Shown here piece after piece: positions 2,479-42,847 of a DNA stretch of 42,847 nucleotides. Origin of the DNA: a virus (taxonomy: Duplodnaviria > Heunggongvirae > Uroviricota > Caudoviricetes); the IMG/VR virus record IMGVR_UViG_3300045988_015629, one strand, 5' to 3'. Position 1 is the stretch's first letter, and every line of letters begins with the position of its first letter. The notes beneath the pieces are model-generated. The model was not told where the DNA came from. It saw nothing but the letters and a program-made list of their open reading frames with translations, and searched no databases. The position numbers and the translations under genes were made by a program.

Positions 2479-2742
2479 CTATTCCAGAATATTCCTCACG
2501 TAATCCTGCAACATGAACACTTTAAGTCTCAGTTGCCGTACACATTCTGCGTTCTGGACGTCAATAGCTAAATCCTCGTCCGCGTCGCTACTTGGCGCCG
2601 CCAGTTTGCACGGCGGCTGCATCATCGTCGTATCCGGGGATGGAATTGGCGTTGGCGACGGCACGTGACTTGAGCTGCACGCGCTCAGGGTCAAAAGTGC
2701 ACACGCTGCGACCAGGCGTTTTAATGTACTTAACGACTTCAC
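2479..2742 (-). CDS. o-spanin (Rz1-like outer-membrane lipoprotein)
   Basis: Signal peptide with lipobox LTLSAC followed by a proline-rich segment; starts inside the Rz-like gene in another frame and extends past its stop. Confidence 0.6.
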   Translation of the reverse strand: MKSLSTLKRLVAACALLTLSACSSSHVPSPTPIPSPDTTMMQPPCKLAAPSSDADEDLAIDVQNAECVRQLRLKVFMLQDYVRNILE

Positions 2743-2974
2743 GGGTGATTACCTCTGATTTCGTCTTGCCTTCGTTGTCAGCGGCGGCGGCCTTTGATTC
2801 GTCCTGCTGCTGCCGTTGTGTTTTCTTCGCTAACTCAGCCTGTGCTTTCTGCTGTTGCTGCGAAACGAGATTCGCCCGGCCTTCGTTCCAGCCGCTGCGG
2901 TACTGGTAGATGCCGTGTGCGTAAGCCAGGATGATGAAACATGCCCCCGCTACGACAGTTGCTTTAAGATTCAT
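2588..2974 (-). CDS. i-spanin (Rz-like)
   Basis: N-terminal transmembrane anchor, Q/K/E-rich coiled coil, overlapping partner lipoprotein ORF. Confidence 0.65.
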   Translation of the reverse strand: MNLKATVVAGACFIILAYAHGIYQYRSGWNEGRANLVSQQQQKAQAELAKKTQRQQQDESKAAAADNEGKTKSEVITREVVKYIKTPGRSVCTFDPERVQLKSRAVANANSIPGYDDDAAAVQTGGAK

Positions 2975-2996
2975 GTTTCCCCTTTCTCGATAAGTA

Positions 2997-3020
2997 AAGC
3001 CCCGCCTTAAAGCGGGGCGC
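2997..3020 (-). terminator. terminator-like hairpin (GCCCCGC-loop-GCGGGGC) with a short U-tract, between conserved element A and the spanin start
   Basis: GC stem-loop then TTTACTT on the minus strand; weak U-run so possibly conditional. Confidence 0.4.
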
Positions 3021-3144
3021 TAGTCCTTATCATTTAAACATAGAAACGGCGTAATCTCAGTAAACCAGTTACTTTTTACACAAGCAATAGAGTATGGCCC
3101 TTCCGAACGCGTCAGCGTAACTACACTCAGGACTTACGTCCCGC

Positions 3145-3235
3145 TCCGTTACCTGCCCGCGCCGCGGTCGCTTGTTCATACTTCACAAGCTCAGGTGGAG
3201 CTTAGCACATTTTTGGTGAAAAGTCAACTATTCGA
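3145..3235 (-). promoter_or_regulatory. conserved promoter-plus-leader element A (TTGACT-N17-TAAGCT, then a 38-nt core identical to element B containing a hairpin)
   Basis: -35 at 3222-3227 and -10 at 3199-3204 on the minus strand; core 3158-3195 is identical to 14005-14042. Confidence 0.55.
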
Positions 3236-3292
3236 ATAGTTTATTCCAACATTTACAATTGAGTGGAATAACTGGAATAGTCACAGGCACTA

Positions 3293-3315
3293 AAAAGCCC
3301 CTTTCGGGGCTTCAG
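3293..3315 (-). terminator. rho-independent terminator after the Ig-like gene
   Basis: GCCCCGAAAGGGGC hairpin followed by TTTTT on the minus strand. Confidence 0.7.
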
Positions 3316-3316
3316 T

Positions 3317-3778
3317 TTATTCTGGCTTAGTAACCTTCGCTGCTTTACTTACGGCCTCTATACCATCGGCATCAGTGACTTTAACGAAGTATTCACCAAC
3401 TGCGTTAACCGTCAGAGACAGAGCCTCTTCCGGGGCGTTTACCACTTCCTTCCCGTCTTTGTACCAGGTCAGTGCATATGGTGCTTTGCCCGCCTTAACT
3501 TCGACAGCGATATTTGCGCTGCCGTCTGCCAGTTCAGCGTCCTGCGGTTGTACGGAGAAATACACATCACCAGCATCCGCCAGGTACTGAATCTCATAAA
3601 GCATACCTGCCGCTGGCAGCGCAATACCGGTCTTGTCCGCAAACGGCATATCGTCCACTGGGGTTCCGAGTACACTTTCGTCTTCAATAAACACCACGTT
3701 CTCGCCAGAGCCAGACACGCGGGCGTACTGGACTACGCGACGAGACGGTACGTCAGTTACTTTGAAAAAGCCCATCAT
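3317..3778 (-). CDS. Ig-like domain protein (possible head decoration/accessory protein)
   Basis: C-terminal YALTWYKDGKEV...GEYFVKVTDADG resembles Ig-like domains; located in head module. Confidence 0.55.
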   Translation of the reverse strand: MMGFFKVTDVPSRRVVQYARVSGSGENVVFIEDESVLGTPVDDMPFADKTGIALPAAGMLYEIQYLADAGDVYFSVQPQDAELADGSANIAVEVKAGKAPYALTWYKDGKEVVNAPEEALSLTVNAVGEYFVKVTDADGIEAVSKAAKVTKPE

Positions 3779-4854: not shown

Positions 4855-4863
4855 ACTATAAGA

Positions 4864-4884
4864 AAGCCCCTTTCGGGGCTACAG
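4864..4884 (-). terminator. terminator-like hairpin between the portal and head morphogenesis genes
   Basis: GCCCCGAAAGGGGC followed by TTTCTT on the minus strand. Confidence 0.4.
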
Positions 4885-9613: not shown

Positions 9614-9946
9614 TCTTTACGCTCTCCCCACATGCGATTGAGATACTTGTTCTTGTCCGGCCCCGGGAAACTGTTACGTTTCATCAGTTCCTCGCGTGTC
9701 GGGAACGGGGTGTGACTGACTTTACGGCCTACTCGTAACGGCTGGCTTACTGGGCCTTGTTCGCTCATTTCTTCTCTCCTGCGTAAGCTGCTTTAAGTGT
9801 CTGCATCGCAGCGAACCAGAACGCGTCCGCTGGAATGCTGTTGCTCAGGTTACTAACGGCGATGCGTGCCATCAGTTGTGCGTCTTTGAATGCTTCGATG
9901 TCTGTGATTTTCATTTTCTCTACTCCGTTCTCGTTGTCGATGGAGT

Positions 9947-13143: not shown

Positions 13144-13332
13144 TCATACCAGAACCTCACATTCATCCCGATACACGAACAATAACGACCCTTTGTACTC
13201 AATCATAAAACCATAATGGTTGATGCTGAACGCCGGAAAAACATCACCTACCGAGATACCGAAATCTATAAGCCTGCGGTCAGTTATACGGACAAGCCTG
13301 CGGTCAGTTATACGGATTCGCATTAACGGCAA
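13144..13332 (-). CDS. hypothetical protein containing an 8-aa tandem repeat
   Basis: Encodes RITDRRLV RITDRRLI from a 24-bp tandem duplication at 13269-13316. Confidence 0.35.
   Translation of the reverse strand: MPLMRIRITDRRLVRITDRRLIDFGISVGDVFPAFSINHYGFMIEYKGSLLFVYRDECEVLV
13269..13316. repeat. 24-bp tandem direct repeat x2 (AGCCTGCGGTCAGTTATACGGA core)
   Basis: Two adjacent copies, 23/24 identical, read directly. Confidence 0.8.
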
Positions 13333-13526
13333 CCTCCCTCAGAGTCGTCGGCACAAGCATCACGATTCGATGCCGTTCGTATTGCTCGTAAGCTATTTAA
13401 CATTCGCTCGCTGGTAGATGTAATAACCGTTATACCGTCCGCCAGATGCACCTCGTAGCGTTCAGCTACGAAATATATTTCCTCGAAATCATGATGTTTC
13501 AGTTCTTCAAATAATTCTTCCATCAC
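13323..13526 (-). CDS. hypothetical acidic early protein (67 aa)
   Basis: ORF in early operon. Confidence 0.4.
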   Translation of the reverse strand: MMEELFEELKHHDFEEIYFVAERYEVHLADGITVITSTSERMLNSLRAIRTASNRDACADDSEGGCR

Positions 13527-13714
13527 TTCGCCCCTTTAAATTTAAAATTTTTGCCGATGAGTTTTAAGTTCTCCTCCGCTACGTATATTTGTGAATTTAC
13601 TCCTCTCACATTTTGCACGGTAACTACGTACTTTCCTGGAAATAAAGCAGATTTTAATTCAATTATGCCGTGTTTATCGTCGGAGTATTTAACCAACTGA
13701 CCACGTTTAAACAT
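13523..13714 (-). CDS. hypothetical early protein, first gene of the leftward early operon
   Basis: ATG at 13714 with AGGAG RBS; track ORF uses GTG at 13723. Confidence 0.45.
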   Translation of the reverse strand: MFKRGQLVKYSDDKHGIIELKSALFPGKYVVTVQNVRGVNSQIYVAEENLKLIGKNFKFKGAK

Positions 13715-13743
13715 AACCCTCACTCCTCTGTCTCGTTTCGATA

Positions 13744-13779
13744 AGTGAATAGTATCCTATTATGTTGGGGTGTGCAAGA
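13744..13779 (-). promoter_or_regulatory. conserved 36-bp early promoter element (minus-strand TTGCAC-N17-TACTAT; contains GAATAG-N4-CTATTA dyad)
   Basis: About 33/36 identical to 35655-35690 in the opposite orientation. Confidence 0.55.
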
Positions 13780-13822: not shown

Positions 13823-13880
13823 GCGAGCGAAACGAAACGAACGTGGTGCCGAAGGCACCAAGAGTGAGTGAGTGAGCTTG
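13823..13880. repeat. short tandem repeats flanking a hairpin: (CGAAA)2-3, GGTGCC-GAA-GGCACC, (GAGT)4
   Basis: Read directly; lies in the 457-bp divergent control region. Confidence 0.7.
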
Positions 13881-13989
13881 CGGATATAACCCACGGCAAA
13901 TCAGTAACTTAGATATTTAGGCGGGAATTACAATAGACTTTGGGCCTCCCAAACGCGCCAGCGAGCCTCACTCCACACGCTACACGTGC

Positions 13990-14080
13990 TCGTTTCGCCT
14001 GCCGCGCGCCGCGGTCGCTTGTTCATACTTCACAAGCTCAGGCTGAGCTTACCATATTTTTAAGTAAAAGTCAATACCGG
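13990..14080 (-). promoter_or_regulatory. conserved promoter-plus-leader element B (paralog of element A)
   Basis: -35 TTGACT at 14069-14074 and -10 TAAGCT at 14046-14051 on the minus strand; core 14005-14042 identical to 3158-3195. Confidence 0.55.
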
Positions 14081-14181: not shown

Positions 14182-14364
14182 ATGCAACATTACATGACCC
14201 AGAATGAAGTAGCCGAGCGTATCGGGGTGACACGTCAGACAATTAATAACTGGTTGCGCAGTGGTAAATTCCCGGATTGTTGTATTAAGGTTATGGGCCG
14301 CCGGATGCCGGGAACATTCGACCGTAATAAAGTTGAAGCGTGGATTAAGGAGAACGTGAAATGA
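14182..14364 (+). CDS. small HTH DNA-binding protein (excisionase/AlpA-like fold inferred)
   Basis: MTQNEVAERIGVTRQTINNWLRSGKFP helix-turn-helix signature; ATG at 14182 with GGAG RBS (track ORF uses GTG at 14110). Confidence 0.6.
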   Translation: MQHYMTQNEVAERIGVTRQTINNWLRSGKFPDCCIKVMGRRMPGTFDRNKVEAWIKENVK

Positions 14365-17037: not shown

Positions 17038-17064
17038 ATAAAGGGGCGTTAAGCCCCTTCACCC
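17038..17064. terminator. bidirectional terminator between the convergent primase-helicase and XRE genes
   Basis: AGGGGC-GTTA-GCCCCT hairpin with A-run upstream. Confidence 0.55.
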
Positions 17065-17264
17065 AACGCCAGCCACTTGGCGTCTACTTGCAGCACTTCC
17101 GCCAGTTTAAACAGCGTCGCTGGGCGGACGTCCTGAGTTACCCCAAGTGCCAGCTGGTTAATCGCGCCTTGGGAAACACCGGCCAGGACAGCCAGATGGC
17201 GCTGGGAGATACCGAGTTCTTTACGGCGTTGCTCTACACGGATACCTAGTTCAGATGGTTGCAT
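17049..17264 (-). CDS. XRE-family HTH transcriptional regulator (Cro/CI-like)
   Basis: LGISQRHLAVLAGVSQGAINQLALG is a canonical XRE helix-turn-helix; AAGGAG RBS; opposite strand to its neighbours. Confidence 0.75.
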   Translation of the reverse strand: MQPSELGIRVEQRRKELGISQRHLAVLAGVSQGAINQLALGVTQDVRPATLFKLAEVLQVDAKWLALGEGA

Positions 17265-17285
17265 GCCAATTACTCCTTAGTCAGT

Positions 17286-17357
17286 TGATATGTGAATAGT
17301 ACCATATTAATTATTTTAGAAAAGCCCATTGACAAGTGAATAGTTCGCTATTATAGT
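17286..17357. promoter_or_regulatory. divergent promoter/operator region: plus-strand TTGACA-N17-TATAGT at 17329-17357 and two GAATAG-N4-(C/A)TATTA dyads
   Basis: Dyads at about 17294-17309 and 17338-17353. Confidence 0.55.
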
Positions 17358-17388
17358 TAGCCCATACCAAACGAGAGGAGAGAAACAA

Positions 17389-19477: not shown

Positions 19478-19506
19478 TTGACACCCGAATAGTTAGCTAT
19501 TATAGT
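19478..19506 (+). promoter_or_regulatory. conserved promoter TTGACA-N17-TATAGT with embedded GAATAG-N4-CTATTA dyad
   Basis: About 25/29 identical to the 17329-17357 promoter. Confidence 0.55.
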
Positions 19507-19559
19507 TCTAATCACTGGCCGGGCAGTTCCCGGAGTAAACTGAAAAGCGAGAAATCACG

Positions 19560-20245: not shown

Positions 20246-22426
20246 ATGAGTTACCTGTTCTTAGACTTTGAAACATTCTCCGAAGCCGATTTGAAGAAAG
20301 TTGGTTCCTACGCTTACGCTGAGCATCCAACTACCGAAGTCCTTATTTGTACATATGCTTTTGACGACGAGCCTGTGCGGGTATGGGATTGCACAGACGG
20401 CAGCGACATGCCGGGGGATTTGCACCGCGCGTTACGCCGTCTGGTGAAACCAAATAGTCGCATTAAGATGGTATGGCACAACGGCTCAATGTTCGACAGG
20501 CTCATCATGAAACACTGCTGGGGCTTTGATATTCCCGTAAGCAACACCATTGATACGATGATTTGGGCGTTTCGTCACGCGCTGCCGGGCTCACTTGATG
20601 CGCTGTGTGAAGTGCTTGGCGTGTCTGCTGACAATGCAAAAGATAAACGCGGCAAGGCGCTGATTCAGCGTTTCTCTAAACCGACACCGAAGAATTACAA
20701 AATCCGCCGCTACACCGCAGAAACACACCCGGACGAGTGGGCGCTGTTCATCAAGTACGCCGTGAGCGACATCACTGCGATGCGTGAAGTCTTCCATAAG
20801 CTGCCGCGTTGGGGTAACTCTGAGTTCGAAGACCGTGTACTGGAACTGGACCAGTTAATCAACGACCGCGGGTTTAAGGTTGACGTTGCACTGGCGGAAG
20901 CCGCTATTGAAGCCGTGGAGAAACACAAAGCGCAGTTACAGGAGGAAGCCCAACGCAAATACGGCGGCTCGCTTACTGGTAAGGACTTTCTGCCGATTCT
21001 TCGTGAACTCGCCCCTGCACACCGCATACACAACGCACAGAAGTCGACGCTTAACGACCTGCTGGCGGACGATGATTTACCGGACGACGCACGCACAATT
21101 ATCGAAATGCGCCTCGGGGCCGCGTCCACCGCGTCAACGAAATATAACCCGCTGCTGTTGGGCCGCTCGTCTGACGACCGACGCCGTGGTTGCATACAAT
21201 ATGGTGGAGCTAAGCGTACGTTACGGTTTGCAGGTAAAGGCTTCCAGCCGCAGAACCTCGCGCGCGGGTACTATCACGATGATGAACTGGATAAAGGAAT
21301 TTCTGCGTTACTTAAGGGCCGCGCTCATCGTCGATTTGACGTAGCCAAGCTAACGGCATCTACCGTTCGTAGCTGCATCATACCGGAAACTGGACATAAG
21401 TTTGTCGTTGCCGATTACTCTAACGTCGAAGGCCGCGGGCTTGCGTGGCTGGCGGGGGAAGAAACCGCGCTAGATACGTTCCGTGCCGGACTGGATATTT
21501 ACTGCGTAACCGCGGGTAAGATGTTCGGTATGGAGCCGGATTACATTAAGAAAGAACGTAAAGATTTGCGCCAGATTGGTAAGGCCTGCGAACTTGGGCT
21601 TGGCTATGCGGGCGGTGTCGGCGCATTCGTACAGTTCGCCAAGAACCTTGGCCTTGACCTGGTTGATATGGCAAAAACAATGGATGGGACTTTCCCCGAC
21701 CACATCTGGGCCGCTACCGCACGTGGATATGAGTGGGCGCGTATTCAGGAAACCAAGCGACCACCACGTCCAGGTGAAAAGGATGACCGACCATCATATA
21801 TTCTTGATAAGAAAGTGTGGCGTACCTGTGACGCTATCAAGCGCATGTGGCGCGAGTCTCACCCGGAAACAGTAGCTTTCTGGCGAGATATTGAAGATGC
21901 AGCTATGGCGGCTATCCGCAACCCAGGTAAAGAGTTCACCGCAGGGCCGCGGGGCGTTAAGTTTTCGCGTAACGTAGAAACGGACAACAACGGCAACAAA
22001 GTCGCCGGTTGGTGGTTGCGGATGACGTTGCCGTCGGGCCGCGTTATGTCTTATCCGGGTGTTGGGCTAAGCGTGTCGAAAGAGACAGACGAAGACGGGA
22101 AGGTGTCTACCAACGTGCGCATCAAGTACCAGGGCGAAAACCAGTTAACCCGTCAGTGGGGCTTCCAGTACACCTACTCTGGTAAACTGGTGGAAAACTG
22201 CACTCAGGCGCTGTGCCGTGATTTGTTGGCTAATGCACTGCTGAACGTCGAAGCAAACGGCTACCCGATTGTTCTTCACGTACACGATGAGATTATCTGC
22301 GAGACACCAGATTTACCGGAATACAATGTAGATGAACTGGAGAAATTAATGTGTGCGTTGCCTGAGTGGGCAGAAGGCTTCCCTCTTGTAGCAGAAGGTG
22401 CGGAGATGAAGCGTTATGCCAAGTAA
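20246..22426 (+). CDS. DNA polymerase, family A, with 3'-5' exonuclease domain
   Basis: Exo motif FLDFETFS, motif A DYSNVEGRG, motif B RQIGKACELGLGYAGG, motif C VHDEI. Confidence 0.9.
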   Translation: MSYLFLDFETFSEADLKKVGSYAYAEHPTTEVLICTYAFDDEPVRVWDCTDGSDMPGDLHRALRRLVKPNSRIKMVWHNGSMFDRLIMKHCWGFDIPVSNTIDTMIWAFRHALPGSLDALCEVLGVSADNAKDKRGKALIQRFSKPTPKNYKIRRYTAETHPDEWALFIKYAVSDITAMREVFHKLPRWGNSEFEDRVLELDQLINDRGFKVDVALAEAAIEAVEKHKAQLQEEAQRKYGGSLTGKDFLPILRELAPAHRIHNAQKSTLNDLLADDDLPDDARTIIEMRLGAASTASTKYNPLLLGRSSDDRRRGCIQYGGAKRTLRFAGKGFQPQNLARGYYHDDELDKGISALLKGRAHRRFDVAKLTASTVRSCIIPETGHKFVVADYSNVEGRGLAWLAGEETALDTFRAGLDIYCVTAGKMFGMEPDYIKKERKDLRQIGKACELGLGYAGGVGAFVQFAKNLGLDLVDMAKTMDGTFPDHIWAATARGYEWARIQETKRPPRPGEKDDRPSYILDKKVWRTCDAIKRMWRESHPETVAFWRDIEDAAMAAIRNPGKEFTAGPRGVKFSRNVETDNNGNKVAGWWLRMTLPSGRVMSYPGVGLSVSKETDEDGKVSTNVRIKYQGENQLTRQWGFQYTYSGKLVENCTQALCRDLLANALLNVEANGYPIVLHVHDEIICETPDLPEYNVDELEKLMCALPEWAEGFPLVAEGAEMKRYAK

Positions 22427-22628: not shown

Positions 22629-22916
22629 ATGAGTACGCCTGAGGGGCGCGTGCAGAAATACGCAAAAGAGCGATTCGAGGCCCTGGGAGGCCTCGTACGC
22701 AAATTGTCGTACGAAAATAGAGCGGGCGCCCCCGACCTGCTGGTAATTCTCCCTGGTGGCATCATCTGGTTCGTCGAGGTTAAGAAAGACGAAAACACGA
22801 AGCCGGACCCGCACCAGTTACGAGAGCACGAGCGGATGCGTAAACGTGGTGCAAATGTTTTTGTCGTTGGTTCGTTTAAACAGGTTGACGACCTAATAGC
22901 GGGCTATTATAGTTAA
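22629..22916 (+). CDS. VRR-NUC domain nuclease
   Basis: PDLLVIL...WFVEVKKD PD-(D/E)XK arrangement typical of VRR-NUC; 95 aa. Confidence 0.65.
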   Translation: MSTPEGRVQKYAKERFEALGGLVRKLSYENRAGAPDLLVILPGGIIWFVEVKKDENTKPDPHQLREHERMRKRGANVFVVGSFKQVDDLIAGYYS

Positions 22917-25576: not shown

Positions 25577-25608
25577 AGAAAAGGCCCCGTTTGGGGCCTT
25601 AGTTTTAT
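25576..25608. terminator. bidirectional rho-independent terminator at the replication/tailspike convergence
   Basis: GGCCCCGTTTGGGGCC hairpin flanked by AGAAAA and TTAGTTTTA. Confidence 0.75.
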
Positions 25609-38102: not shown

Positions 38103-38133
38103 GAAAAAGGCCCCAAACGGGGCCTTAGTTTTA
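38103..38133. terminator. bidirectional rho-independent terminator at the island/major-tail convergence
   Basis: GGCCCCAAACGGGGCC hairpin flanked by AAGAAAAA and TTAGTTTTA; same stem as the 25576-25608 terminator. Confidence 0.75.
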
Positions 38134-39303
38134 TGCGTATGTGATACGCTGAATAACAATAGACGACTGGTACTGGTTGCCAGTAGCCTGGCCTTCAATA
38201 GACTGAGTGATTGACTCAGGTCCTCCAATCTCAGGTGTAACCGCCGTAAGTTCTGCACGTTTCAAACTGAAAGACATAGCCCCATTTACCCCAGCCAGAA
38301 TAGAGTTAATCTCCACCTGCTGCTCGTTGATAAACTTCTGAATCATCGCCATGTCGTACAGCTTACCGGAGATGGAGAAGGTGTTAGCTGCTCGGCTACG
38401 CTCCACAAACGCTACGTTAGTGTTGCCGAGTTCGAACTGTGCGGACGCGCTGTTGTCGTTGGTGATGGTCAGGCTGTCGCAACGCAACGGCGTAGAACCG
38501 TCGAACACAGAAACATCGACCGAGGAGAATGGCTCGTCACCAAACGTAACAGAGGAGAAATCAGAACCAGACGGCTGCGTGGTGAGAATCTCCTGACTGC
38601 GACCGATGAACGGGAAGCTGCCAGTTACCATAGCGTTAACAGCCTGTTCGATGGTAAAACCAGAAACTTCCACGCCTTTGGTTAGTGTGTACGCGTCAGT
38701 CCCGCCGCACTGGCCTTTGTACCAGGTGAGAATAGAGAACGTCTTGCACTGGCTTCCCGTTTCCAGTTTATCCCCTGTCTTAGCGGCGGTAGTTACTGTC
38801 TCTGTGGTCAGGGTATGCTGGATACCCGCCCCGGTCACTACCAGCGCCTCTACTGCAGTTACGATAAACGGTTTTGCGTTGTCACCGGTTAAGTCGGTAA
38901 ACGCAATCAGGTCGCCCACTTCAACGCCGTCAGAAATAAAGCTACCTTCGGCACGGGTAAAGGTCTTGCCTGCAGGCGCGACGGTAATTGATAGCCTGGT
39001 CAGAGAACTACCGGATTGCCATGTAGAGCCTAAAGCACCCGCCAGCCAGTCGTCCTGGCTTTTCGAGCTAAGCTCAATAGCGTATTCTCCGCTAACCTGC
39101 TTGTTACCGGTGCGGATTGACGTAGTTTCACGGCTGCCGTCCAGTTCGTTGGAGGTCAGCGTGTCGCGGGTAATGGCAGGAACGCCACCTGTGTTACGCA
39201 ATGGCGACCAGACCGGGTTAGTCGGTGTTACGCCAGGGGTAGTTTCTGCCACATAGAATTGCGCAGTATTCGCGCCCTTAAAAGGAGTTGTAGCCATATT
39301 CAC
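38131..39303 (-). CDS. major tail (tube) protein, putative
   Basis: 390-aa protein at the end of the head-tail joining cluster and upstream of the chaperones. Confidence 0.5.
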   Translation of the reverse strand: MNMATTPFKGANTAQFYVAETTPGVTPTNPVWSPLRNTGGVPAITRDTLTSNELDGSRETTSIRTGNKQVSGEYAIELSSKSQDDWLAGALGSTWQSGSSLTRLSITVAPAGKTFTRAEGSFISDGVEVGDLIAFTDLTGDNAKPFIVTAVEALVVTGAGIQHTLTTETVTTAAKTGDKLETGSQCKTFSILTWYKGQCGGTDAYTLTKGVEVSGFTIEQAVNAMVTGSFPFIGRSQEILTTQPSGSDFSSVTFGDEPFSSVDVSVFDGSTPLRCDSLTITNDNSASAQFELGNTNVAFVERSRAANTFSISGKLYDMAMIQKFINEQQVEINSILAGVNGAMSFSLKRAELTAVTPEIGGPESITQSIEGQATGNQYQSSIVIQRITYA

Positions 39304-42712: not shown

Positions 42713-42847
42713 TTAAGATACAATTGCTCCGGTGCTGCTGGAGATAATATTACCGTATACATCGTGGACAACCACTTTATACGTACCGGAATCGGTAGTA
42801 GCGAGCGAAGTTTTCTCGTAGGTGGCGGCGGTAGCGCCTGGGATAGC
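42713..42847 (-). CDS. Ig-like domain virion protein, C-terminal part of the junction-spanning gene (see 1..271)
   Basis: Frame continuous with 1..271 across the terminal overlap; stop codon at 42713-42715. Confidence 0.6.
   Translation of the reverse strand, partial: AIPGATAATYEKTSLATTDSGTYKVVVHDVYGNIISSSTGAIVS
42793..42847. repeat. 55-bp exact terminal direct repeat (identical to 1-55)
   Basis: Direct comparison of the first and last 55 nt. Confidence 0.95.

Follow-up and report, generated by a model that had tools for sequence, protein, structure and literature searches.

Genomic setting of the two copies

The DNA analysed here, a stretch of 42,847 nucleotides (nt) filed as IMG/VR virus record IMGVR_UViG_3300045988_015629 and called the window below, is the genome of a Kagunavirus (Guernseyvirinae), a virulent siphophage of Escherichia coli, and carries on its minus strand two copies, A and B, of a cassette in which a sigma-70-type promoter runs straight into a leader RNA of about 108 nt. 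The element is most aptly regarded as a candidate new family of structured leader RNAs that act in cis. The 500 base pairs (bp) around it match 181 phage records at 90-100% identity, from Kagunavirus and related Guernseyvirinae (phages of E. coli and Salmonella). Because positions 1-55 are repeated perfectly at 42793-42847, the window is a complete, circularly assembled genome; this 55-bp terminal duplication is the assembly overlap of a circular or circularly permuted genome and no biological repeat.

A gene map drawn from annotated relatives (e.g., phages Shashou and Sciku) shows both copies at the heads of operons. Read along the minus strand, small early genes come after copy B and end at a terminator; holins and endolysin, another terminator and more small genes follow, and a further terminator then precedes the genes for terminase, portal, head morphogenesis and an immunoglobulin (Ig)-like protein, which end at a strong intrinsic terminator at 3292-3315 (minus strand; AGCCCCGAAAGGGGCU followed by UUUUU) that is annotated as a terminator in Shashou and Sciku. 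Copy A comes next, followed by i-spanin, o-spanin, scaffold and major capsid protein, a terminator after the capsid gene, the head-tail genes and tail tube, and a final terminator. All of these genes and both copies are co-oriented. The first gene of the copy A operon is that of the i-spanin (2588-2974, minus strand, assigned from annotated relatives), and the first small gene of the early-left operon, 3' of copy B, is at 13523-13723 (minus strand). Besides the terminator after the capsid gene, terminators downstream lie at about 12712, 10008, 8278, 4866 and 38110. Divergent from copy B and adjoining it, at 14182-14364 on the plus strand, is a gene for a 60-residue winged-helix protein that matches Pfam HTH_17 (excisionase/MerR-like); the gene is conserved in 449 phage records, and its product is a candidate phage regulator.

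The two promoters

The pattern TTGACT-N14-TGn-TAAGCT occurs exactly twice in the window, both times on the minus strand (3227-3199 and 14074-14046), against an expectation of 0.01 in shuffled sequence. Promoter A (3199-3227, minus strand) consists of the -35 hexamer TTGACT (3227-3222), a 17-bp spacer with the extended -10 dinucleotide TG (3207-3206) and the -10 hexamer TAAGCT (3204-3199); promoter B (14046-14074, minus strand) has the same layout, with TTGACT at 14074-14069, a 17-bp spacer, TG, and TAAGCT at 14051-14046. Transcription would start at about 3192 or 3191 from promoter A and at about 14039 from promoter B. An earlier note on this DNA had described identical hexamers and 17-bp spacers differing between the copies, and this was borne out, the spacers differing at six of 17 positions; the extended -10 of both promoters had not been part of that description.

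Promoter A is conserved in all variants of its locus. Adjoining its -35 hexamer are overlapping inverted repeats that resemble an operator (ACTATTCGAATAGT and GAATAGTTTATTC, 3227-3246), while promoter B has none. The block formed by these repeats and the -35 hexamer is the best conserved of the copy A locus (0.993), and in Jerseyvirus the repeats are kept as GGAATA-N3-TATTC at a counterpart of promoter A that has a poor -35, TAGACT. This persistence of the repeats despite the poor -35 suggests an activator-dependent middle or late promoter. Promoter B, with its consensus -35, heads the early-left operon.

Half-sites of the form GAATAG/CTATTC recur as a repeat family in the window, at 3227-3246, 2451-2463, 13738-13767, 17285-17358, 19478-19507 and 22885-22914; they adjoin the -35 of promoter A, precede the scaffold gene and the first early-left gene, and also lie within the spacers of four plus-strand promoters (TTGACA...TATAGT). 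A single phage regulator probably stands behind these repeats, activating one promoter and repressing others, and the candidates are the HTH_17 protein and an XRE/Cro-like protein encoded at 17049-17264. A second promoter-like site with an embedded operator-like repeat (13738-13775, minus strand; TTGCAC-N17-TACTAT) lies between copy B and the first early-left gene. It is conserved in phages K1H and Jersey, and it occurs too in phages that lack copy B.

The -10 hexamer is repeated 9-11 nt downstream, as TAAGCT..TGAGCT in the window (3204-3187 and 14051-14034, minus strand), where GAGCTT gives an A at position 2 and a T at position 6 of the downstream hexamer. In Jerseyvirus the pair reads TACGCT..TACGCT (L059, 7292-7312), so the third base shifts in both hexamers together. 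The repeat might serve as a promoter-proximal pause element dependent on sigma-70, of the kind present at lambda pR', or it might be a by-product of the sequence of the first RNA stem, P1, described below. Its resemblance to such an element speaks for DNA-level control of the Q or AlpA type, in which a phage DNA-binding protein, such as the HTH_17 protein, would load onto polymerase at these promoters during a sigma-dependent pause and the conservation of the RNA would be secondary. Two paralogous promoters with downstream hairpins are also found at AlpA targets (PMC7969949), and the small winged-helix gene beside copy B is universally conserved. The spacer, however, is the most variable portion of the -80 to +20 block, with six variable columns in the -30 to -6 bin besides the differences between the copies, and no conserved protein-binding element was found between the -35 and -10 hexamers, the Jerseyvirus spacer being unrelated to that of Kagunavirus. 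The protein matches HTH_17 and not the AlpA or Q families, and neither the compensatory changes in 15 RNA pairs nor the G-U pairs specific to one strand can be accounted for by a DNA site. Control of this type is thus quite improbable.

A two-domain leader RNA

A repeat finder paired 3158-3227 with 14005-14074 over 70 nt, ungapped and at 89% identity, the first 38 nt being identical (CGCGCCGCGGTCGCTTGTTCATACTTCACAAGCTCAGG); this is the same 38-nt core that the earlier note had pointed out. The repeat of about 90 bp that it had described is real, but its extent was underestimated, as gapped alignment on the minus strand carries the similarity to about +108 (3085 and 13931), through a poorly alignable middle and into a second conserved block, GCTG.CGCGTT.GG.AGG.CCA.A.TCTATTG. 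The note's placement of a promoter plus leader on the minus strand in both copies also held, since the two promoters run straight into a structured RNA, as did its hairpin of GCUUGU and ACAAGC with a 9-nt loop, which is predicted in every variant. The "GC-rich tract" that it placed after this hairpin is instead the 5' strand of a stem of about 65 nt and is not single-stranded; the 38-nt core is thus the P1 hairpin plus the 5' strand of the long stem. A transcribed functional element, then, is upheld by covariation and conservation, but as a two-domain RNA of about 108 nt and not as a hairpin with a GC tract.

In copy A (type T1; 3085-3192, minus strand), whose fold is predicted and supported by covariation, P1 spans 3190-3170 and is followed by a linker GA, a long irregular stem (3167-3103) and a tail, AAGGGCCAUACUCUAUUG (3102-3085). 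Its long stem comprises P2 (CCG/CGG, GG/UU, CGCG/CGCG and CAG/CUG), P3 (GGUAAC/GUUAC), an internal loop and P4 (CGGGAC-GUAA-GUCCUG). Copy B (type T2; 13931-14039, minus strand) is predicted to fold likewise, with P1 at 14037-14017, a long stem at 14014-13948 whose P3 and P4 sequences are unlike those of copy A, and a tail that runs to 13931; the divergent middle of the two copies thus keeps the fold. Eight sequence types share one predicted fold, in which P1 begins at +3 and is followed by a linker of 1-2 nt, an irregular stem of about 65 nt and the tail. The long stem is built in general from CCG/CGG, two G-U pairs, N-GCG/CGC-N', CAG/CUG, a 5-bp P3, an internal loop and P4. The junction is near-invariant (ACCGCGG-N-GCG ... 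CGC-N'-UUCGGAAGGG) and the internal-loop strands, AACG.AGC and GAGUG, are semi-conserved; the P4 hairpin varies in sequence and loop, and a single-stranded tail, AAGGGCC...CUAUUG, closes the element at about +108.

Covariation, constraint and coding potential

Variants were gathered from GenBank phages and IMG/VR, and a covariance model, R1, was built from 24 Kagunavirus sequences. In the window R1 matched only the two copies, at 128.3 bits (A) and 89.2 bits (B). Pair statistics were taken over 42 distinct sequences in an alignment fitted to the model, which favours structure; standard pairs fill 94.8% of the pair cells, compared with 30-43% when partners are slid by 1-3 columns, and in 15 of the 29 pairs both partners change. 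At the base of the stem, one pair is CG in 18 sequences, UA in 18 and AU in five with no break, and between genera P1 changes from GCU.../...AGC to CGC.../...GCG. The key covariations recur in a plain MAFFT alignment built without the model. The conserved G-U pairs can form on the minus strand only, in agreement with the orientation of the promoters. Covariance-model searching of related phages, a check that the earlier note had proposed, found the element present and conserved there, its stems carrying compensatory changes.

Constraint on the locus was measured as majority-residue conservation over 35 distinct copy A loci. It is 0.95-0.995 from -80 to +220, with peaks at the operator/-35 block and at -5 to +20, while the spanin gene reaches 0.86-0.96 and the Ig-like gene upstream about 0.5. 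This profile also exposes a mosaic boundary, where conservation passes from about 50% in the Ig-like/Hoc-like gene (3317-3778) to more than 95% from about -80 of promoter A onward. The boundary, near -100, is a recombination junction, whose approximate limits are the terminator, at about -95 of promoter A, and position -80.

The region has been annotated as coding in several GenBank records, where a small protein of 32-36 residues, MNKRPRR..., is given. An ATG in the P1 loop indeed opens a frame of 36 codons in copy A, and a hypothetical protein is annotated there in, e.g., Shashou and Sciku. Type T3, however, has no ATG, one-base insertions or deletions shorten the frame to 9 or 17 codons in near-identical copy A variants, the conserved 3' block is read in different frames in copies A and B, and there is no convincing ribosome-binding site. 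No preserved open frame was found across relatives, whose variants have 9, 17, 19, 22 or 32-41 codons or no ATG. We give the protein almost no credence, and the hypothetical protein given at the element in the entries of many genomes (window 3069-3179, minus strand; e.g., CPT_Shashou_007, CPT_Sciku_007 and Jersey gp08) is very probably spurious. The strong covariation, the conservation above that of the flanking genes and the breaking of the overlying frame in natural variants together support a functional RNA on the transcribed strand.

Distribution and exchange of the element

The Kagunavirus type of copy A is present in 181 records and the Jerseyvirus type in 269, together about 450 phage genomes. 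The diverged Jerseyvirus version scores 32-40 bits with R1 (E about 1e-8) and occupies the equivalent site, flanked by the Ig-like/Hoc-like gene and the spanin gene, upstream of the capsid genes. A second copy exists in about 43 of the Kagunavirus records, the 181 records having 224 places between them, and at this early-operon site at least three further types occur that differ chiefly in P3 and P4. Phages without copy B have another promoter and leader there, the junction lying near GUCUAUU, and copy B is a duplicate of promoter and RNA that replaced them. In every case the element begins at the start site and the promoter travels along with the RNA. A natural recombinant, the IMG/VR phage L043, has a B-type middle within a copy A context, which indicates that the types have been exchanged by recombination and are evidently interchangeable.

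No match to the element was found in 5,426 complete E. coli genomes, which were searched for a host origin. Pattern scanning of metagenomes returned at least 120 loci; among the loci listed, 11 score strongly with the model, and all of these are of Kagunavirus types. The same kind of scan over representative bacterial genomes returned only two short phage-like contigs, and among the matches listed both scans gave only Guernseyvirinae-type copies.

In Serratia phage Tsm2, a distant member of the Guernseyvirinae, R1 had no match. The leaders of Tsm2 (L200) upstream of the spanin gene (20440-20530) and at the early-left operon (9730-9860) are paralogous to each other, sharing GAGTTGC.G..GGAAAAACT..TTATGCT as well as a covarying closing stem (UAUGCUCA/UGAGCAUA vs. 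UAUGCUAC/GUAGCAUA), and the end of the late leader, CAUUCGGAAAG, resembles the tail of the element. Judged by sequence, the two leaders may form a pair that is analogous to the element, or that has diverged far from it, at the same two loci. Where copy B is missing, phages keep a strong promoter and a structured leader of roughly 300 nt before the second, operator-bearing early-left promoter. The early-left leader of Jersey (L059, 38860-38990) opens with a hairpin, GUAACUU-C-AAGUUAC, and that of K1H (L078, about 330-560) has a hairpin, GCCCCGC-CCUAAA-GCGGGGC, resembling the one found 3' of copy A.

Downstream hairpins and operon layout

Each copy is followed by a terminator-like hairpin on the minus strand. 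That of copy A, GCCCCGC-UUUAAG-GCGGGGC followed by UUUACUUAUC (2990-3018, hairpin 3018-2999), lies about 175-200 nt past the start site and 16 nt before the ribosome-binding site of the spanin gene; that of copy B is UGGUGCC-UUC-GGCACCA followed by CGUUCGUUUCGUUUCG (13835-13860, hairpin 13860-13844). The stem of the copy A hairpin covaries, being GCCCCGC/GCGGGGC here, GCCCAGC/GCUGGGC in L001, and GCCCGGC/GCCGGGC or GCCCGAC/GUCGGGC in Jerseyvirus. Both hairpins are among the best terminator-like sites of the first 15 kilobases in a consensus scan. The earlier note had taken them as terminators; the hairpins themselves proved conserved, covarying and top-ranked, but their U-tracts are weak (that of copy A is weak and that of copy B interrupted) and their standing as terminators is not established. 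Promoter A is the sole promoter candidate in the stretch from the terminator at 3292-3315 to the genes for spanin, scaffold and capsid, so the polymerase that serves these genes must pass the hairpin at 3018-2999.

This last point bears on the suggestion that each locus yields a stand-alone small RNA (sRNA) of about 195-240 nt ending at the downstream hairpin, comparable to lambda 6S or oop, which would act in trans, the two loci then being paralogous sRNA genes. Each locus has its own promoter and, about 195 nt downstream, a hairpin; the 5' domain is conserved and structured; and a separate first-gene promoter follows copy B, so that the copy B transcript could be an end in itself. On the other side, polymerase from promoter A has to pass the hairpin to reach its genes, the U-tails are short and unlike those of Hfq-type sRNAs, the part between element and hairpin differs strongly between A and B, and no conserved single-stranded seed is apparent except the tail. 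A stand-alone sRNA is accordingly improbable, though less so than control at the DNA level.

A structured leader, a hairpin and a first gene are also the classical layout of a regulated attenuator, in which the leader, bound by a phage or host protein or by a small ligand, would decide whether polymerase stops at the hairpin; N/nut-like and bipartite conAn-like systems are included here. Internal-loop sequences are kept although the helices are variable, as they are in pockets that bind a protein or a ligand, many small phage proteins have no assigned function, and conAn couples a leader RNA to a small protein (PMC8191782). Reading of the sequences, however, revealed no conserved alternative pairing between the element and the arms of the hairpin, changes in the hairpin stem being unmatched in the element, and about 70 nt of poorly conserved linker separates the two. 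The B-type hairpins differ, some being without U-tracts, copy B works from an immediate-early promoter, and the Rfam search described below gave no riboswitch-like match. Attenuation is an unlikely explanation, but one that carries real weight.

The borders of operons in the window are marked by near-identical GC-rich terminator hairpins (AAAGCCCC-NNNN-GGGGCTT; 3292-3321, 4863-4884, 25579-25608 and 38105-38134), some of which are bidirectional. Within the small early genes there is a 23-bp perfect tandem duplication (13270-13316), AAGCCTGCGGTCAGTTATACGGA occurring twice, 1 nt apart.

Relation to known elements

Rfam 15 gave no match over the whole window at gathering thresholds, and at 2900-3300 with E values up to 10 it gave only chance-level matches (E of 1 or more, bit scores far under the cut-offs), none of them riboswitch-like. 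A covariance model of the HK022 put RNA, built from six putL sequences, recovers HK022 putL at 97 bits and putR at 37.7 bits. The earlier note could name no matching family, and Rfam 15 and the put model, both negative at the element, agree with it. Literature on Kagunavirus, Jerseyvirus and Guernseyvirinae yielded no description of the element.

HK022 put is nonetheless among the known systems closest to the element. Acting alone, put RNA binds the beta' zinc-binding domain of RNA polymerase and counters both pausing and termination in cis. The put RNA has two stems, putL lies directly after PL, and no protein is needed (PMC9378689). In both systems two paralogous copies stand downstream of two promoters of one phage with terminators beyond, and the element, like putL, starts at the 5' end of the transcript. 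Each of the two RNAs has two stems and a conserved junction; no protein recognisable as N-like turned up among the 20 small proteins scanned, and at an early promoter the enterobacterial sigma-70 polymerase would be the only possible partner of the element. The differences are also clear, as put measures about 74 nt and the element, whose P1 is short and whose second stem is very long, about 108 nt, the element is found in virulent Guernseyvirinae and put in lambdoid phages, and one copy of the element heads a late lysis and structural operon.

The copy A locus is laid out like the pR'-6S-tR' region of lambda, with a promoter, a leader of about 195 nt, a hairpin, lysis genes and then head and tail genes, and, as at pR', a hexamer resembling a -10 element lies where the transcribed region begins. 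The 6S RNA is 194 nt long, and its region is not known to be conserved or covarying in the manner described here, whereas in the element the leader RNA itself is the conserved, covarying part. The hairpin downstream of the element has a weak U-tract, unlike tR', and the Q/qut system is set apart by the lack of any Q-family match among 20 small proteins of the window and of a conserved spacer element across genera.

The conAn system likewise has a leader RNA at the head of a long operon with several terminators, in which the RNA gives read-through and the terminators insulate against spurious transcription (PMC8191782). The conAn2 RNA, however, is about 280-380 nt long, follows a gene, requires the ConAn1 protein for processivity, and is found in Gram-positive conjugative plasmids (PMC8191782); it has no sequence relationship with the element, and the hosts differ.

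Several features of the element also recall the hairpins that stabilise or process messenger RNA (mRNA), which lie no more than 2 nt from the 5' end or form long imperfect stems with internal loops. In such a role the hairpin, set 2 nt from the 5' end, would protect the transcript from 5'-end-dependent decay by RppH and RNase E, the long imperfect stem would provide a processing or stability element of the RNase III type, and the yield of both operons would be raised. All Kagunavirus variants have P1 starting at +3, and the element invariably occupies the extreme 5' end; it works in two unrelated operons, its long stem has about 29 pairs with internal loops, and a second covarying hairpin stands directly before the ribosome-binding site. 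Stabilising and processing hairpins, such as those of the ompA-type 5' untranslated region and the RNase III hairpins of the T7 early mRNAs and the lambda N leader, tolerate almost any sequence. A generic hairpin would thus suffice, which leaves unexplained why ACCGCGG.GCG, CGC.UUCGGAAGGG, CUAUUG and the internal-loop motifs, that is, junction, loop and tail, are near-invariant across genera; in Jerseyvirus, moreover, P1 would have only 3-5 bp with the likeliest start site. We judge a stabiliser to be doubtful, to about the same degree as an attenuator.

A number of more specific resemblances were considered and set aside. A 26-nt likeness to putL stem II (GAGCGCGGCG..CAGG..AACGG) is at chance level (p about 0.1). 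For the RfaH ops site, TGCGGTCGCGTG of Jersey matches GGCGGTAGCGTG at 10 of 12 positions, but other Jerseyviruses have lost this match and Kagunavirus does not have it. With regard to boxA/nut, CUCUAUUG in the tail is only loosely boxA-like, and there is no conserved boxB-like loop, because the P4 loops vary (GUAA, GUUA, AUUA, UGUAG, UCUCGA and CACA). A pseudoknot between the P1 loop and the tail, which would have 6 bp in copy A (AGUAUG/CAUACU), is contradicted by uncompensated tail variants (CAUAGU, CAUAUU and CAAAGU) and by the lack of the pairing in T3 and Jerseyvirus. Pairing with the downstream hairpin as an antiterminator or anti-Shine-Dalgarno sequence is not conserved. Finally, the CCCCGC/GCGGGG stem of the copy A hairpin equals the stem of a type I-E CRISPR repeat, but this is a coincidence and no repeat mimic, because the hairpin stem covaries away from that sequence.

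Proposed mechanism

Among the readings considered, we lean, tentatively and at less than even odds, toward a put-like element that would counteract pausing and termination in cis, with no need of phage factors. While it is being made, just after promoter escape, the nascent RNA would fold into the 5'-terminal hairpin and the long irregular stem, and would act in cis on its own elongation complex by binding the host RNA polymerase without a phage protein. The bound polymerase would become resistant to pausing and termination, so that polymerases from both promoters would read past the hairpin that lies about 195 nt downstream, and past the subsequent terminators within the operons, at which read-through or spurious transcripts from upstream would still be halted. 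The unit would be a portable cassette, in which a host sigma-70 promoter with an extended -10 is fused to the RNA of about 108 nt from the start of transcription. In its fullest form, this proposal would make the element a second class of processive antiterminator that consists of RNA alone and has no structural relation to put, in which the nascent leader binds the enterobacterial polymerase right after promoter escape and licenses the lysis/structural operon and, in some phages, the early operon across a large virulent siphophage subfamily; that is possible, but a shade less likely than the put-like action in general.

A host partner is argued for by the position of copy B. Because it belongs to an early operon and has a consensus promoter with no operator sites, copy B must work before any phage protein exists, which points to a host component as its partner; that the same RNA is found at an immediate-early and at a later promoter argues the same way. 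No match to an N or Q antiterminator family was obtained in a PHROGs scan of the 20 small proteins or a Pfam scan of five, and the only regulators recognised in these scans were HTH_17 and HTH_3 (XRE-type). Put-like action is further supported by the hairpin that follows each copy, that of copy A covarying, and by co-oriented operons that are punctuated by intrinsic terminators, an arrangement resembling lambda pR'-tR' and HK022 PL-putL. The earlier note had likened the element to antitermination or pause elements, and such a function fits the context of a lambda pR'-like layout and operons with several terminators.

A number of results weigh against put-like antitermination. Homology to put is lacking: with filters off, the put model matched neither the elements of the window nor that of phage Jersey, its best match in the window being one of 8.7 bits elsewhere, R1 had no match to HK022 putL or putR, and shuffle-controlled local alignment to putL stayed at chance level (p = 0.1-0.5). 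The thermodynamic z-scores of the fold are modest (-1.0 to -2.7), and the 5'-terminal position with two unpaired nucleotides before P1 suits an mRNA stabiliser equally. The U-tracts after both hairpins are short and interrupted (UUUACUUAU and ACGUUCGUUUCG), and no U-tract whatever adjoins the hairpins of the B types T3 and T4, so that the hairpins just downstream of the elements may not be terminators. Because a second promoter follows copy B, the operon there is independent of read-through. In the cluster as a whole most terminators are followed by promoters of their own, so processive antitermination is not strictly required.

Significance

Many of the phages that carry the element were isolated for therapy or biocontrol of E. 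coli and Salmonella, and at present genome records either leave it without annotation or wrongly give it as a hypothetical protein. The cassette of promoter plus RNA is compact (about 140 bp) and naturally portable, which makes it a candidate part for phage or synthetic-biology engineering. To our knowledge, the reprogramming of bacterial RNA polymerase by an RNA without protein is known essentially from one small family, that of HK022 put, which we found in only 21 phage records. If the proposed mechanism is true, an unrelated element with the logic of put would mean that this solution evolved more than once, and it would provide a second system in which to study the control of elongation by nascent RNA. 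Whatever the mechanism, a strongly constrained non-coding element heads the capsid and lysis operon in about 450 sequenced phages of the Guernseyvirinae.

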